64,000 nucleotides of DNA from an uncultured virus (IMG/VR IMGVR_UViG_3300028809_000684) (lineage: Duplodnaviria > Heunggongvirae > Uroviricota > Caudoviricetes), in the IMG/VR virus record IMGVR_UViG_3300028809_000684; one strand, given 5' to 3'. Below, piece by piece: positions 21,451 through 32,106 of the stretch (its first letter is position 1; the number at the start of each line of letters is the position of its first letter). The notes beneath the pieces are model-generated. The model saw only the letters and a program-made list of their open reading frames with translations. It made no database searches and was not told the origin of the DNA. The position numbers and the translations under genes are program-made.

Positions 21451-22620
21451 TCAGTTGGTCGACGGGAGGTCGACCTGTTCTCCGTCGTTACGAGCGATCA
21501 GCTTCGCGATGACGGCGCCGTCGGTGTTCTCGCTCAGGAACCGAACGGCTCCATCAGCGAAGACAGCCTGAGCACCACCCACATGGAAGCTGTAGATCTC
21601 GTCGTTCGGGCCACAGTTGTTGGTCGTCCACGGGCAACCCGGGGTCGGGCTGGTCGGTCCACCGGTCGGACGATTGTTGTTGTTGATCAGACGATGCGTC
21701 GAACCAGCCTGAGCCGGCGGGCCGGACACACCACTGCCGTTGTCGGGATCAGCCCACCGATTCGGGCACCGGCTGGCCGAGCCCGATCCGGAAGCGTCCT
21801 TGCAGTTGTCCGTGGTCCCACCGTTAGCGGTGGAGGCCAGGTACTTGCTGCGGATCCCGCCGTTGGCAGTGAGGTACTGCTTGCCGGCGTCTTCCGCGAT
21901 CGCGACCGTGTTGCTGGTTCCGTCCGTGATCAGACCCATCGCGGTGCCGCCCAGAGACAGAGCTCCATCGCGACGCGAGTTCCGATCCGTGGACGTCGCC
22001 GGATTCCGCCGGCCGAGGGCCACCGTCGTCGCCGAGGTCCCCGTCAGGTCCGTCGACGCGATCACGATGTCGGTGTAGACGGTCGGCATGTAGTCGGTCT
22101 GACCGTACCCCATCTCATCATCGACGTAGACACCGTTGCTCGGGCAGAGCAGGGCGGCGATCTTCGTCTTGGCGGCTTCCCGGTTCCGGTACTGCGGCGA
22201 GGTCGTGACCGTGCTGGCGGCGTTGTAGTGGTACTTCAGGTCCATCGTGTTGTACACGGGCGCCTGATCGAAGTACGGCAGCAGCGACGTGAACGTCGAA
22301 TGCGGATCGAACGCCGTGTCGTGCTTCGTGCCCACCCACTGACCGTTGGTGAGGGTCAGCCCCTCGGTCGCCAGCCCGGACGCCTGCGTGGCCGTCCAGT
22401 TCGTTCCTTCCCCACCACTCGGGAACCGCTTGTAGGCGGACTCGTAGTTGTGGAGAGCCAGTCCCATCTGCTTCAAATTGTTCTTGCAGGTGCTGCGACG
22501 AGCAGCCTCGCGCGCCTGCTGGACCGCTGGCAGCAGGATTGCCACCAGGACTGCGATGATCGCGATGACCACCAGCAGCTCAATCAACGTGAAACCCCGA
22601 CGCAAAGAAGAACGTGCCAT
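21451..22620 (-). CDS. DUF1559 prepilin-type N-methylation protein (Planctomycetota family)
   Basis: [77 protein letters not shown] (H-X9-DG). Confidence 0.97.
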
Positions 22621-24439: not shown

Positions 24440-24624
24440 GATGGTTCCTCGGGTGAAAGTTGCGGCTCCGCCACACGGCTGGAACCATTGAACCGTGCGA
24501 GTTTAGCCTTAACTCCTGCTATAACCCTGTGATCAAGATGGATGAACTAGCGGGAGCGACTGTCTGTAAGCATGGCCCTTCTGCTGACCTTCCTGCCGGC
24601 GCACCAGTTTCCTACAGGATGTAA

Positions 24625-24774
24625 CGCTCGCCAGGGCTGTGGGTGCATTGCCCGGAATCCTGGCCACTTACTCAGCGTTCCACGGGTGGTCCTGAGCGGC
24701 TAGCGCTTCAGGCCTCATCCGTGCTCGCCCCTGGCAGCGGGGCTAGAAACAGAGGTTGATTGTCAGAGCCTCTG
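24625..24774 (-). ncRNA. omegaRNA-like scaffold, copy 1
   Basis: Homologous to the RNA at the 3' end of the TnpB-like gene; four co-varying stems; invariant GAACGCTG and CACAGCCC. Confidence 0.8.
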
Positions 24775-24880
24775 CTCTTGGACTGTTCGGGCTTGAGTCG
24801 AAAATGGCTCGTGCCTGACTGCGACGTACAGCGGCCTGCGCAGCGGAGGAGCGTTTCTGCGTTAATCTGGCCAGCAGGGA

Positions 24881-24946
24881 CCACAACATCAGGATCGAGA
24901 CGTGGTGCTAAAGGTCCTCACGTTCTACCGCCACAACATCAGGATC
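24881..24946. repeat. 16-nt direct repeat CCACAACATCAGGATC (x2)
   Basis: Exact copies at 24881-24896 and 24931-24946. Confidence 0.9.
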
Positions 24947-24956
24947 TAGATCCAAA

Positions 24957-25107
24957 CATTGCCGGGGCTGTGGACACATTGTCCTGAATCCCGGCCACTT
25001 ACGCAGCGTTCCGCGAGCGGTTCCGAGCGGCGAGCGCATTCAGACCTTACTCGCGCTTGGCCCCGGTGATGGGCCTAGACATCGGGGTTGAAAGTCAGAG
25101 CCCCTAT
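24957..25107 (-). ncRNA. omegaRNA-like scaffold, copy 2
   Basis: Same architecture; P2 loop ATCACCG. Confidence 0.8.
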
Positions 25108-28648: not shown

Positions 28649-28863
28649 CTGCGGATGAGACGGCCACCTCTCGTAACTGCGGGATTCTTCACCGGCATTG
28701 TCCTGCGGGGTGCCGGCAGCTGCCTGCATGCGCCATGCTCTGCTTTCGTGAACGATGGTCCTGCACAGAACCTAGAGCCGAGACCTGCATCCATTGGGCT
28801 GAGCTGCCTCGTGCGTGTGAACCTGCCCTCCATAGCAACCTGCCGAAAGGCCTCCTAGCGAAC
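28649..28863 (-). repeat. GCAG-punctuated array of unique 12-24 nt segments (putative guide array)
   Basis: Plus-strand CTGC at 28649, 28677, 28703, 28720, 28724, 28740, 28761, 28785, 28804, 28823 and 28840. Confidence 0.7.
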
Positions 28864-29008
28864 GTCTCGGGGCTGTGGACACGTTGTCCTGAATCCCGAC
28901 CTTTCACAGCGTTCCGCGAGTGTCTCCAGGCGGCTAGCGCTCTGGATCTGATTCGCGCTTCGCCCTTGCAGCGGGCGTAGACACAGGGGTTGATAATCAG
29001 TGCCCCTG
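28864..29008 (-). ncRNA. omegaRNA-like scaffold, copy 3
   Basis: Same architecture; P2 loop GCTGCAA; ends CCCCGAGAC. Confidence 0.85.
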
Positions 29009-29057
29009 CTCTGGGAATTGTTCAACGTAATCTCACGTTCAGGACGTGGCACATTGT

Positions 29058-29386
29058 CTGCAATACGGACAGCAGACGCTGCCTAACCGGATTGTGCTGC
29101 CTTGATCCTGCGACATTCCCCGTAGACCTGCTGACGTACGGACTTCTTTCTGTCATGACACGATCGTCTGACGTGATACTGCGTCCGAGCGGAACATCAC
29201 TCGCCGTGTCGGTGCTGTTGCGTCCCTGAGGTCATTGCAGTGCGCCAGTGCCGGAAGCTGCGTCCGAACCCTAACGAGGTGTACTCGAACGTCCGAATCT
29301 TGCCGCAATGGTATCCTGTCGCTCCTTGCAAAGCCGACACACTTCTCCAGGGACTTGCAGTCGAGTTTCAGGCGGGTGCACCGGAC
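29058..29386 (-). repeat. GCAA/GCAG-punctuated array (putative guide array)
   Basis: Plus-strand TTGC at 29218, 29235, 29300, 29326, 29355 and CTGC at 29058, 29079, 29097, 29108, 29128, 29179, 29258. Confidence 0.6.
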
Positions 29387-29534
29387 GTTTCGGGGCTGTG
29401 AGCACATTGCTCGGAATCCCGATCTCTTTCTCAGCGTTCCGCGGTCGAACCGGGGCGGCTAGCGCTCCCGGTCGACACCGCGCTTGGCCCTGGCAATGGG
29501 CCTGATCCAAGGAGTTGAAGGTCATTGCTCCTGG
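29387..29534 (-). ncRNA. omegaRNA-like scaffold, copy 4 (overlaps the TnpB-like stop codon)
   Basis: 5' hairpin spans the TGA; P2 loop ATTGCCA; ends CCCCGAAAC. Confidence 0.85.
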
Positions 29535-30823
29535 CTCGTCTCGCCTTCGTCGGAGGACTCTTCCTCCTTCTCCGGCGGCGTCTTGGCACGAACCACGATC
29601 CGCTTCGCACGAGCCTTCTGTTCGATCATGGTGCCAAGCATGGCCCACGGGAACGAGGGTGCGAAGGAGTGGTCCGTATCGTCATAAACGATCTCCGCCA
29701 CTTTACGGCGGGCTGCGTAGGCAACAAGTGAGGCACTCACCTGGTGGCACAGCGTCTGGAGCCGGTTCCGGTCACGCCGGGCCTTCTCCTGAACGTGAGC
29801 TTGGAACGGCTTTCCGTCCCGCCGCGGTTTCCGATACTCGGCCTTGCGGTCGTCGCTCAGTCGAGACAACTCCCGCAGGTGGGCCGCGTGCCGGTTCGAA
29901 ATCATCCGGGCGTTATCGGCGTTGTAGTTCCAGATCCGCTGATCGTCCATGTCTACGCAGACCAGGAGCGAATCCTTGTCTGAGCGAACCATCAGCGTGT
30001 TGTCGGGAATGGACTCTCCCTTGATGGGGAGCCACCCGACGATCTTCGCCATCAACCGCCGGCTCGACCGGTTCCCGTTTCCGTTCTCTCGGTCCTTGTT
30101 CGCCGGCCGGTGATCGCCGGGCTTGCCTTCGATTTCCAGCAGCGCCGCCTGGCCCAGGAGCTCGGGATGCTCCATCAGCCATTCGATCGCCTTCGTCTGC
30201 CGCTTGAACTGCCGGCCGGCAGAGAGCATCAGCTCGTGCCGCACTCCGCCGACATTGGCGATCAGGAAGATCCGCTCGTCCTTGCGTTCCAGCTTGAACC
30301 CGTCCGGCCGAATGGGAACCGGCTGCGGAAAGCGGAAGCTCGGCGGCGCAATCGCGTTTCGCCAGATCATGTCATATCGCAATTTGCGATAGCGCTGCTC
30401 GACTGACATCAGAACCGCCGAAGCGGTTCCCTTGCCGATCGTCTGCCACGATGCCAGCTCTGGTCCCATCCCGTACAGGTAGATCGGCGGCATCTTCGGC
30501 AGTTTCTCCTCGCCGGGACCGCGGACAACGTCGTTCGCCAGCAGCTTCCGGATCGCCCAGTTGCTGAGGTGAGTCACTGCCTCCTGTGCCTGCCGCAGGA
30601 TCGGGCGAAAGACCTCCCAGTCCGCCGAGGCGATCGGGATCGTCATCGCGCGGATCGCGTAGGTCTTGCCCCAGCACTCCGAGCAGGTGAGCGTACTCCC
30701 AACGTTCTTCCAACCCCGCGGCGGGCGAGGCTTCCCTTTCACGGTCGGCTTGACGTTGCGCAAGGCGCCGCAGACCGAGCAAGCAATTTCGACAGTTTCA
30801 GTTGACGTTGTCGCCGTCTCCAT
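29522..30823 (-). CDS. Nuclease-dead TnpB/Cas12f-like RNA-guided protein with an N-terminal Zn ribbon
   Basis: Bridge helix and RuvC-II region RNRLQTLCHQVSASLVAYA..IVYDD..FPWAMLGTMIEQKA...IVV; no GxDxG RuvC-I motif; ends before the Zn finger and RuvC-III; N-terminal CSVC...CSEC. Confidence 0.8.
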   Translation of the reverse strand: METATTSTETVEIACSVCGALRNVKPTVKGKPRPPRGWKNVGSTLTCSECWGKTYAIRAMTIPIASADWEVFRPILRQAQEAVTHLSNWAIRKLLANDVVRGPGEEKLPKMPPIYLYGMGPELASWQTIGKGTASAVLMSVEQRYRKLRYDMIWRNAIAPPSFRFPQPVPIRPDGFKLERKDERIFLIANVGGVRHELMLSAGRQFKRQTKAIEWLMEHPELLGQAALLEIEGKPGDHRPANKDRENGNGNRSSRRLMAKIVGWLPIKGESIPDNTLMVRSDKDSLLVCVDMDDQRIWNYNADNARMISNRHAAHLRELSRLSDDRKAEYRKPRRDGKPFQAHVQEKARRDRNRLQTLCHQVSASLVAYAARRKVAEIVYDDTDHSFAPSFPWAMLGTMIEQKARAKRIVVRAKTPPEKEEESSDEGETSQEQ

Positions 30824-31172
30824 TGAGCCCTCCGAAGGTAGTGAGTAGAAGTGCCTGTACCTTTGCCTTCATCTTCTCGATGATCGCGAGCCACTCGGCC
30901 TCAGTCTCGATCTCAACGTGCGGCATCTCCGACTGGAAGAGACGCCACTTATGTGCGCCCATGCCGATTCGAGCAACACCGCGATCGGCGCCAGCTTTCT
31001 GTGCGTCTTCATCGAGCCGCTGCAATATGGTGTCCGCAAGTGCCAGCGACTTCGGGACCACGATCTTCCCTTCCGCGTCGCGGAAGGGAATTTCATAACC
31101 GCCAAGGTAACTAAGCATAAAGAACCAACGAATCGATGGCACCCCGGTTACATTGACCCTGATAGGTTCCAT
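30798..31172 (-). CDS. Hypothetical protein directly upstream of the TnpB-like gene
   Basis: GAGG RBS; overlaps the TnpB-like start. Confidence 0.65.
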   Translation of the reverse strand: MEPIRVNVTGVPSIRWFFMLSYLGGYEIPFRDAEGKIVVPKSLALADTILQRLDEDAQKAGADRGVARIGMGAHKWRLFQSEMPHVEIETEAEWLAIIEKMKAKVQALLLTTFGGLNGDGDNVN

Positions 31173-31978: not shown

Positions 31979-32032
31979 TGGGAGGTGCGGTCAATGTTCC
32001 ATTGTGAGGTCCTCCTTCTGAAATGAACCCTG

Positions 32033-32106
32033 TGTCGGGGGCGGGATTCGAACCCGCAACCAACGGATTTGAAGTCCGGTGCTCTAACCATTTGAGCCAC
32101 CCCGAC
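32033..32106 (-). tRNA. tRNA with UCA anticodon (opal suppressor, not tRNA-Sec)
   Basis: Canonical 7/5 cloverleaf; CCGGA-CTTCAAA-TCCGT; short variable loop; A73. Confidence 0.85.

Follow-up and report, generated by a model that had tools for sequence, protein, structure and literature searches.

The phage locus described here carries several RNA-like scaffolds behind a single effector gene, each followed by short units that are separated by tetranucleotides in a polar order, which raises the question of how such arrays grow. The window (the whole stretch of DNA that was analysed, 64,000 nt) belongs to a large soil phage, whose record (G001) measures 229 kb and has a CheckV value of 100%; a further contig (L040) represents the same phage, with 1 mismatch in 14,173 nt. 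On the best reading, in which we place somewhat more than even confidence, the arrays grew at their scaffold-proximal end as ordinary CRISPR arrays and were eroded afterwards, the repeats of the window arrays having been reduced to the tetramer that pairs with the loop of the scaffold. The order of units is thus probably the usual CRISPR polarity, and a novel growth machine is not required. The interest of the locus lies in the shrinkage of a repeat to a four-base code and in the association of one protein with five scaffolds and four codes, and not in polarity itself.

Effector protein and scaffolds

The system is predicted to consist of a nuclease-dead Cas12f-family gene and five tracrRNA-like scaffolds, one of them beyond the window. 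The following features are involved:

29522..30823, minus strand: Cas12f-family effector, 433 aa (fold and profile matches, catalytic columns, C-terminal tail)
30798..31172, minus strand: 124-aa ORF overlapping the effector start (homologue, tblastn and structure searches)
29394..29533, minus strand: scaffold S4, tracrRNA-like, overlapping the effector stop codon; loop TTGC at 29496-29493 (sequence copies and folding)
28871..29008, minus strand: scaffold S3; loop CTGC at 28971-28968
24966..25106, minus strand: scaffold S2; loop TCAC at 25069-25066
24635..24774, minus strand: scaffold S1; loop CTGC at 24737-24734
L074:11948-11839 (G001:C1, about 1.4 kb past the window end), minus strand: fifth scaffold S5, loop CGGC, followed by four GCCG units; far from the effector gene

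The AlphaFold2 model of the effector (pLDDT 87) finds its best fold match in Cas12f (AsCas12f, E=3.7e-16; dCas12f 9n9c, E=9e-13), with structural alignments to Cas12f of Z 18.5 (rmsd 19.4, 335 residues) and Z 16.2 (rmsd 2.7, 179 residues). Profile searches matched SpCas12f1 and OsCas12f at about 1e-10, and by fold and profile comparison the WED-REC-RuvC fold of the Cas12f/TnpB superfamily is present; in the fold searches Cas12m comes out far behind Cas12f. The features of an active type V-F (Cas12f1) protein that the effector lacks are the catalytic D-E-D triad, the C-terminal zinc finger and RuvC-III. Its RuvC-I Asp column holds Arg280 and is Asp in 0 of 178 family sequences, and its RuvC-II Glu column holds Asp381, an Asp shared by 123 of the 178. 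The chain stops before the zinc finger and RuvC-III, a median of 23 residues past the last aligned strand in the same 178 sequences, none of which has a C-terminal CxxC. Because the RuvC-I Asp is replaced and RuvC-III and the zinc finger are missing, the effector is predicted to be nuclease-dead. An extra N-terminal CxxC...CxxC zinc ribbon is conserved in the family. The gene is intact, and variants in a related contig fall mostly on third codon positions, as judged by their spacing and not by a formal test.

The effector belongs to a large family (1,369 clusters at E<=0.001; 1,011 clusters at 50% identity at E<=1e-10) that resides on phages and prophages and has no model in Pfam, NCBIfam or PHROGs, none of whose families was matched by the protein. 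There is no paralogue in the source phage, no relative came up when viral contigs were scanned with the protein or with its close clade, and none was found in GenBank phages or PLSDB plasmids. Related loci were fetched (54 in number), and 41 were kept after removal of 13 duplicates, re-fetches and the phage's own record; one of those counted, L055, belongs to an unpublished genome.

If the effector gene and the reading frame on its opposite strand are set aside, the most widespread gene family is present in 5 of the 41 loci. The ORF at 30798-31172, which the initial annotation had put forward as a candidate accessory factor, is not a conserved component: it has two homologues (98% and 81%) among proteins of near its own length, to which the homologue search was confined, no significant tblastn match in the 41 loci (best E=0.05) and a poor model (pLDDT 0.46) without usable structural match. 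A gene of about 225 aa stands beside the effector gene in 3 of the 41 loci (L013:4279-4956, L015:9556-10245, L025:4006-4686), in two of them between gene and scaffold. The window also contains a tRNA gene with a TCA anticodon (32032-32106, minus strand; tRNA-SeC according to ARAGORN), which is set apart from the tRNA cluster at 486-1957 and could be a UGA suppressor.

S4, S3, S2 and S1 are four copies of an element of about 140 nt located downstream of the 433-aa ORF, and in each the tetramer sits in the middle of the 7-nt loop of the second hairpin. Compensatory changes occur in 16 of 38 predicted pairs among these four copies, and the loop stem is paired in 18 of 18 scaffold sequences, a level reached by 0 of 500 shuffles. 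The four GCCG units behind S5 are weak evidence alone (p=0.055) and agree with the rule that loop and separator correspond. Rfam had no match for the scaffold, scans of viral contigs with its DNA pattern gave chance-level matches only, and a promoter and terminator scan of the locus gave no informative signal.

A nucleotide profile detects scaffolds in most of the 41 loci (hits lacking the downstream anchor or the loop were excluded, i.e., L008, L045, L046, one in L050, and L051). In 26 of 36 relatives' scaffolds the loop complement lies +54 to +58 from the anchor, where the first 36-nt repeat has its 3' end; this count allows wobble (24 are exact), and some loci are related, so that the events are not all independent. 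The 26 cognate matches involve 9 different tetramers, and permutation of the loops gives a mean of 9.5 matches and a maximum of 19 in 5000. Among the 10 scaffolds without a match are some whose array has a leader or whose first repeat is degenerate, and by eye the rule is kept in L045 (TCAC/GTGA), L048 (TTGC/GCAA) and L056 (CTGC/GCAG) as well. Covariation shows the scaffold hairpin loop to be the predicted partner of the last bases of the repeat, directly before the guide, a tracrRNA-like pairing of scaffold and repeat as in type V CRISPR systems. Cas12f guide RNAs are described as containing a pseudoknot and a repeat:anti-repeat stem (PMC12255294), and the natural reading of the loop-repeat pairing, by analogy, is that it would be a pairing of this type. 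Several scaffolds per locus, some with differing loops, are seen in relatives too, namely in L050 (8508, 11498 and 11811, with a degenerate copy after the gene), L005, L022 and L031.

Arrays of the window and of related loci

The arrays behind the four window scaffolds are composed of the following elements:

29354..29393, minus strand: first unit after S4, a degenerate 40-nt repeat; its 5' arm (29387-29381) is complementary to TCGGACG
29040..29358, minus strand: array A4, 12 separators (5 GCAA, mostly proximal, and 7 GCAG, six of them distal); period 11-51 nt, median 23
28649..28870, minus strand: array A3, 32-nt first unit; 11 GCAG separators in all (1.4 expected), median period 19
24930..24965, minus strand: full-length 36-nt hairpin repeat ending GTGG+1, behind S2 at the family's canonical distance
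24901..24929, minus strand: 29-nt spacer containing GTGA
24881..24900, minus strand: 5'-truncated copy of the S2 repeat (3' 20 nt, 95% identical)
24819..24860, minus strand: three GCAG units, non-cognate to S2, directly upstream of S1
24581..24634, minus strand: array A1, 43-nt hairpin first unit and two GCAG separators (24596, 24584)

Separator coordinates refer to the first base of the tetramer on the minus strand, whereas the initial annotation had given the low ends. Behind S4, GCAA separators lie at 29358, 29329, 29303, 29238 and 29221 and GCAG separators at 29261, 29182, 29131, 29111, 29100, 29082 and 29061, in the order GCAA x3, GCAG, GCAA x2, GCAG x6. A recount agrees with the original statement that five of the six proximal separators are GCAA and all six distal ones GCAG; 4 of 792 orderings are equally polarised (rank test, p=0.005, post hoc). 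With 12 GCAA/GCAG tetramers per 330 nt, the arrays of S4 and S3 form the two top minus-strand peaks of the window (mean 3.3, next peak 9), and the separators keep no fixed reading frame. The parallel statement on S2, i.e., GTGR proximal and three GCAG distal, holds with one amendment. The tetramers there are GTGG 24934, GTGA 24921, GTGG 24884 and GCAG 24860, 24839 and 24822, but GTGA 24921 falls inside the 29-nt spacer and is probably no separator, so that polarity behind S2 rests on 2 versus 3 units and is weak (3 GTGR observed vs 1.5 expected).

S2 preserves a full repeat at the canonical +56, followed by a 29-nt spacer and then by the last 20 nt of the repeat. This is the only full repeat left in the window: S4, S3 and S1 are without a canonical one (+60, +52 and +63 vs +54 to +58), and their first units are degenerate. 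Three copies of TCGGACG had been noted behind S4 and are found at 29296, 29267 and 29188, where they form residual repeat arms within A4. The triplet in itself is unremarkable, 67 of 579 windows of 330 nt containing a 7-mer three or more times; what is notable is its complementarity to the arm right after S4. Two of the three copies adjoin GCAG, and both pair with the S4 arm better than at least 96% of random 10-mers of the window, which is why these two shared sub-sequences are read as putative repeat remnants and not as related guides. Pairing with the arm follows no monotonic gradient along A4 (rho 0.10). The two similar 13-mers reported earlier are located in the S3 array at 28863 and 28839, and may represent a degenerate repeat copy or a local duplication. 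The S4 first unit (29385-29372) also shows 9-12 nt of complementarity to the first units of S1 (24592-24634) and S5, at their 3' ends, which may reflect an old shared repeat or chance. No strain variant of the window arrays was found: L040 is the same phage, in contigs from 4 of the 8 listed sequencing runs, which cover the window arrays thinly, no indel or joint was seen, and the single listed contig within A4 does not differ from the window.

Related loci have arrays with longer repeats. Among 28 arrays scored, 16 contain full repeats only and 12 are mixed. The former have 36-nt repeats at a period of 64-78 nt with a few shortened spacers, and full arrays of relatives contain spacers of 29-39 nt, some matching real DNA exactly; full-length repeat arrays with captured spacers, as in type V systems, are thus present in the family. 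Four loci contain long mini-repeat arrays:

L018:9290-10160: mini-repeat array, about 29 units
L022:9330-10560: mini-repeat array, about 38 units
L019:9330-10790: mini-repeat array, about 50 units
L024:9390-11390: mini-repeat array, about 65 units

Their median period is 25-28 nt and their remnants measure 7-12 nt; CRISPR finders are unlikely to call any of the four. Judged by sequence, the 4-nt separators of the window form the extreme of a series within the family that leads from 36-nt repeats over 7-12-nt remnants to four bases. By eye, the remnant in L022 and L031 also pairs with the arm after the scaffold. Deletions in relatives begin within a spacer, reach into the repeat that follows and vary in their breakpoints, and the 3' end of the repeat is always kept (10, 21, 24 and 14 nt in L018; 25, 11 and 11 nt in L027). 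L019, L021, L024, L027 and L054 contain duplicated spacers, and local duplication, one of the two routes of growth originally proposed, does occur in relatives. Arrays of the family are likely reshaped by tandem duplication and cassette recombination as well.

The spacers of relatives fall into two classes, one (L013, L025, L043, L044, L056) with a period of 65-66 nt, spacers of about 30 nt, a leader and throughout the CTGC/GCAG combination, and another (most other loci) with a period of 70-78 nt and spacers of 34-39 nt, which suggests capture by two different host adaptation systems. In three Acidobacteriota genomes (L055, L057, L058) a single repeat with an identical 13-nt guide start lies downstream of the gene, followed by a conserved pair of what we take to be regulator-like and permease-like genes. 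This unit resembles a domesticated single-guide regulator; counts of exact 12-mers for its guide start are no higher than in the control.

Direction of growth and alternative readings

Addition of new units beside the scaffold, with the distal units being older, is supported at the level of the family by repeat truncation and by pairs of variant arrays. Shortened repeats are distal in 10 of the 12 mixed arrays. Four of these (L005, L008, L010, L013) keep the full period, reflect divergence and were removed from the deletion set, in which truncated repeats are distal in 7 of 8 arrays (one-sided binomial 9/256); three of these 7 rest on one terminal unit, which is possible in any CRISPR array. 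L056 and L141, from one genome, have leader, distal spacer and trailer in common and differ in three proximal spacers exactly at repeat boundaries. Three distal spacers are common to L052 and L069, the proximal part of L069 lying at a contig end and being error-ridden in appearance, and L043 and L044 have the trailer alone in common. L022 is contrary: its full repeats stand in the middle of the array, and the units at the distal end are the most uniform. Blocks of repeat variants in the four mini-arrays are not significant in runs tests (p 0.07, 0.55, 0.08, 0.12), and the corresponding rank tests give 0.02, 0.04, 0.14 and 0.14. The initial annotation had named indels scattered in relatives without regard to unit boundaries or position as the finding that would speak against polarised growth. 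This applies by half: the deletions observed do cross the boundaries between repeats and spacers, yet without being scattered, for the 3' end of the repeat and the 5' end of the spacer are spared and most of the deletions are distal.

The unknown growth mechanism once invoked is unneeded if the separators are 3' remnants of CRISPR repeats, because ordinary spacer acquisition followed by erosion then explains the polarity. In the mechanism held likeliest, spacers would be added beside the scaffold by host Cas1-Cas2 acting in trans on a full repeat, given that the phages are without cas1. Deletions, whose pattern is observed and whose cause is presumed, would take the 3' part of each spacer together with the 5' part of the next repeat, and selection would keep the pairing tetramer and the first 10-20 nt of the guide. 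The protein-scaffold complex would dock on any separator, use the following bases as guide and bind DNA without cutting it, most likely so as to stop competing mobile elements or host defence loci from being transcribed. At S4, the GCAA block would have been added after a C-to-T change in the loop, ahead of older GCAG units still read by wobble. Since S4, S3 and S1 have no canonical full repeat, they could not now acquire spacers by the standard route, and even the proximal GCAA units have by now shrunk to 4-7 nt.

An ancestral CTGC loop, which the distal units were proposed to match, is plausible for S4 and likely not the explanation for S2. TTGC and CTGC differ by one transition, and a TTGC loop can pair with GCAG if a G.U wobble is allowed; S2 and its own GTGG repeat have their wobble at this position too. 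A CTGC loop cannot read GCAA, which fits an arrival of the GCAA units after the loop change. The ancestry stays unproven because TTGC still pairs with GCAG and the GCAG blocks adjoin present-day CTGC scaffolds. As judged from pairwise identity, by which scaffold and protein ancestry were assessed, the five scaffolds are 68-80% identical with conflicting splits, S1 and S3 being grouped by 1 of 32 informative columns; the presence of CTGC in two non-sister scaffolds is compatible with an old CTGC. Three of the four bases of the S2 loop TCAC deviate from CTGC, and the same loop is found in L045 together with a cognate repeat, which makes replacement of the whole module the more likely event than loop drift.

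For the pattern of the window itself the main rival is a serious one, though we hold it to be considerably less probable than not: scaffolds and their cognate units would have recombined ahead of GCAG units that belong to, and are at present read by, the neighbouring CTGC scaffold (S3 or S1), the separators still being repeat remnants. Both distal GCAG blocks indeed end directly upstream of a CTGC scaffold, and TCAC, three changes away from CTGC, is unable to pair with GCAG. Mini-array units upstream of the scaffold in L031, full repeats in the middle of the L022 array that are of the same types as those of its second cassette (cassette mixing), and scaffold identities with conflicting splits, as recombination would give, point the same way. 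Such a fusion is at odds with the single GCAG (29261) that lies among GCAA units in A4 and with GCAG units 4 and 7, which carry arm pairing with the flank of S4 and are thereby tied to it, and a single transition suffices for the difference between TTGC and CTGC. We consider it improbable that the four-base arrays are an active format in their own right, in which one dead Cas12f would use five scaffolds and four loop codes as addresses, each reading its own guides, and new tetramer-plus-guide units would be written beside the scaffold by an undescribed route free of full repeats. Direct building of mini-units without any full repeat, by an undescribed route (e.g., reinsertion of a piece resembling mature crRNA) or by repeated local duplication and divergence, is likewise improbable, and a little more so. 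It would account for the likeness of each mini-unit to a trimmed crRNA (3' end of the repeat plus 5' end of the spacer), for the uniform remnant length within L022, L024 and L031, for arrays of 50-65 units without an internal full repeat (L019, L024), and for the duplicated spacers listed above. Yet the transitional arrays L018 and L027 keep variable remnant lengths, as random deletion predicts, the four mini-arrays have only 0, 1, 4 and 1 pairs of duplicated spacer starts, the 41 loci have no conserved neighbour gene, and no reverse transcriptase or Y1 transposase occurs in five phage records (source phage and four relatives).

That the arrays are dead CRISPR relics in neutral decay is very unlikely: the units of the window and the mini-units have no targets and the first units of S4, S3 and S1 are degenerate, as decay would have it, but such decay would not spare exactly the loop-pairing tetramer 11-12 times per array, and the compensatory changes in the scaffolds and the intact effector gene argue against it. 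At IS200/IS605 ends a tetranucleotide pairs between a hairpin guide and the cleavage site. A strand transfer of this kind, with the loop as TnpA guide tetranucleotide, the separators as cleavage sites and the fragments captured by an HUH transposase, has this precedent in its favour, as well as the descent of the effector family from TnpB. It has next to no probability in our view, being largely refuted by the bona fide 36-nt repeat arrays of relatives, which end in the same tetramers; the phage and four relatives also have no Y1 transposase. A dead RuvC and the presence of arrays also set the system apart from IS200/IS605 TnpB (OMEGA).

Spacer capture, targets and known systems

The full-length spacers of relatives are captured DNA: five of them have exact protospacers, two outside their own element and three inside. 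Both outside matches are those of L052 spacers in the host genome, with 5' flanks TTT and TTC. This host encodes cas4-cas1-cas2 and has an array with a 37-nt repeat and spacers of about 34 nt, which we take to be a type I-C-like system with a TTC PAM. One target lies near a phage integrase gene; the other is in an HTH gene that has a PD-(D/E)XK nuclease downstream of it, and its spacer possibly silences a defence operon. In L071:2-2093, this HTH gene and the nuclease are accompanied by an ORF resembling an Argonaute N-terminus by eye (no Pfam hit). None of the three exact self-element matches (L049, L035, L041) has a TTN flank, and so the TTT and TTC of the two outside targets do not establish a family-wide PAM. 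The first spacer of L041 (array at about 1503) matches its own effector gene at L041:254.

No cas1 is found in six phage records (source phage and five relatives), from which we infer acquisition in trans by host Cas1-Cas2; type IV-A3 systems reportedly acquire spacers in trans. Cas1, Cas2 and Cas4 gave no tblastn match in the 41 loci, and an adaptation module of their own (cas1, cas2, cas4) is also missing from many described V subtypes (PMC10691335).

Matches of the window units did not exceed shuffled controls in the whole phage, the best match within the window measured 11 nt (a search without control), and only chance-level matches were obtained in 401 Planctomycetota genomes and 50,697 phage records. 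These searches are of low power, with guides of 10-20 nt, the true host not among the genomes, and the phylum guessed from a DUF1559 gene. This prepilin-type gene (window 21451-22620, minus strand), presumably typical of Planctomycetota, is the sole hint of the host. The arrays of L027, L054 and L024 had no convincing target, and 211 unit prefixes of six relatives matched their own contigs no better than 633 shuffles did, with the exception of one full-length spacer.

The system is predicted to work like a dead Cas12f CRISPR system, and it lacks the hallmarks both of active V-F and of the dCas12f-sigma-E systems. It resembles CRISPR-Cas12f1 (type V-F; SpCas12f1, AsCas12f1, OsCas12f) in fold and profile and, as far as described in PMC12255294, in a scaffold with a pseudoknot and a repeat:anti-repeat stem and a guide 3' of the repeat; TTC, the SpCas12f1 PAM, is also one of the two outside protospacer flanks. 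Unlike in Cas12f1, the RuvC-I Asp is lost, the C-terminal zinc finger and RuvC-III are absent and an N-terminal zinc ribbon is added; the scaffold lies directly 5' of the array, and repeats go down to 4-12 nt in part of the family. The dCas12f-sigma-E activators are described as pairing a dead truncated Cas12f with an RNA downstream of the gene, and as using short guides (14 nt, more than 10 being needed) from an array minimised from a CRISPR ancestor (PMC13472631; bioRxiv 10.1101/2025.06.10.658880; RpoE-TnpB, PMC10691335). Altae-Tran et al. report a Cas12f array minimised to half a repeat (PMC10691335). The present family shares these traits, i.e., the dead truncated protein, downstream RNA, short guides and a minimised array; in dCas12f-sigma-E, as described there, the half repeat is fused to the tracrRNA and whole sgRNAs are duplicated, whereas here one scaffold serves many mini-units. 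A linked rpoE with HTH gene and single fused guides are not seen, the 41 loci having no conserved neighbour family and the arrays having multiple units. A CRISPR-associated dCas12f cluster without sigma-E, C-terminally truncated, near arrays, with a gRNA predicted upstream and with repression proposed (Hoffmann et al., PMC13472631, Extended Data Fig. 1), resembles the present family in these described traits, and the two may overlap; that description, as far as it extends, does not mention a phage location, an N-terminal zinc ribbon or eroded mini-repeats.

Cas12m (V-M), V-O, V-P and type IV-A are described as lacking adaptation genes, not cleaving, silencing by binding and taking part in inter-element conflict (PMC11656645, PMC12669027), and V-O and V-P are given as inactive by Makarova et al. 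(PMC12669027). The present system is like them in having no adaptation genes of its own, and absence of cleavage as well as silencing by guide-dependent DNA binding, as in the RNA-guided repressors TldR and Cas12m, are predicted for it by analogy. Phage CRISPR mini-arrays, for their part, are described as having few spacers, full repeats that match the host system and no effector of their own (PMC11656645).

TIGR systems have Nop-domain Tas proteins and regular dual-spacer units. Phage mini-arrays, single-repeat units and TIGR arrays are, in the available descriptions, compact phage guide arrays, as are those presented here, and TIGR arrays are missed by standard CRISPR finders, as is expected here. 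No description of arrays with 4-12-nt repeats was found in titles and starts of abstracts; most subscription papers, bioRxiv supplements, figures and data files lay outside this search and could name the clade.

If the arrays function, a CRISPR repeat can be cut down to the pseudoknot partner alone, dozens of guides can be held at about 20-28 nt per guide and be missed by CRISPR finders, and the family keeps intermediates between a tracrRNA-crRNA system and a single-guide RNA. The swappable loop-tetramer code would in that case offer multiplexed repression in a very compact form. Contigs of other organisms match parts of the scaffolds at about 84% (window 28901-28976 in runs X3 and X6; 29440-29474 in X4 and X6), matches which indicate that related systems exist in the same soils.
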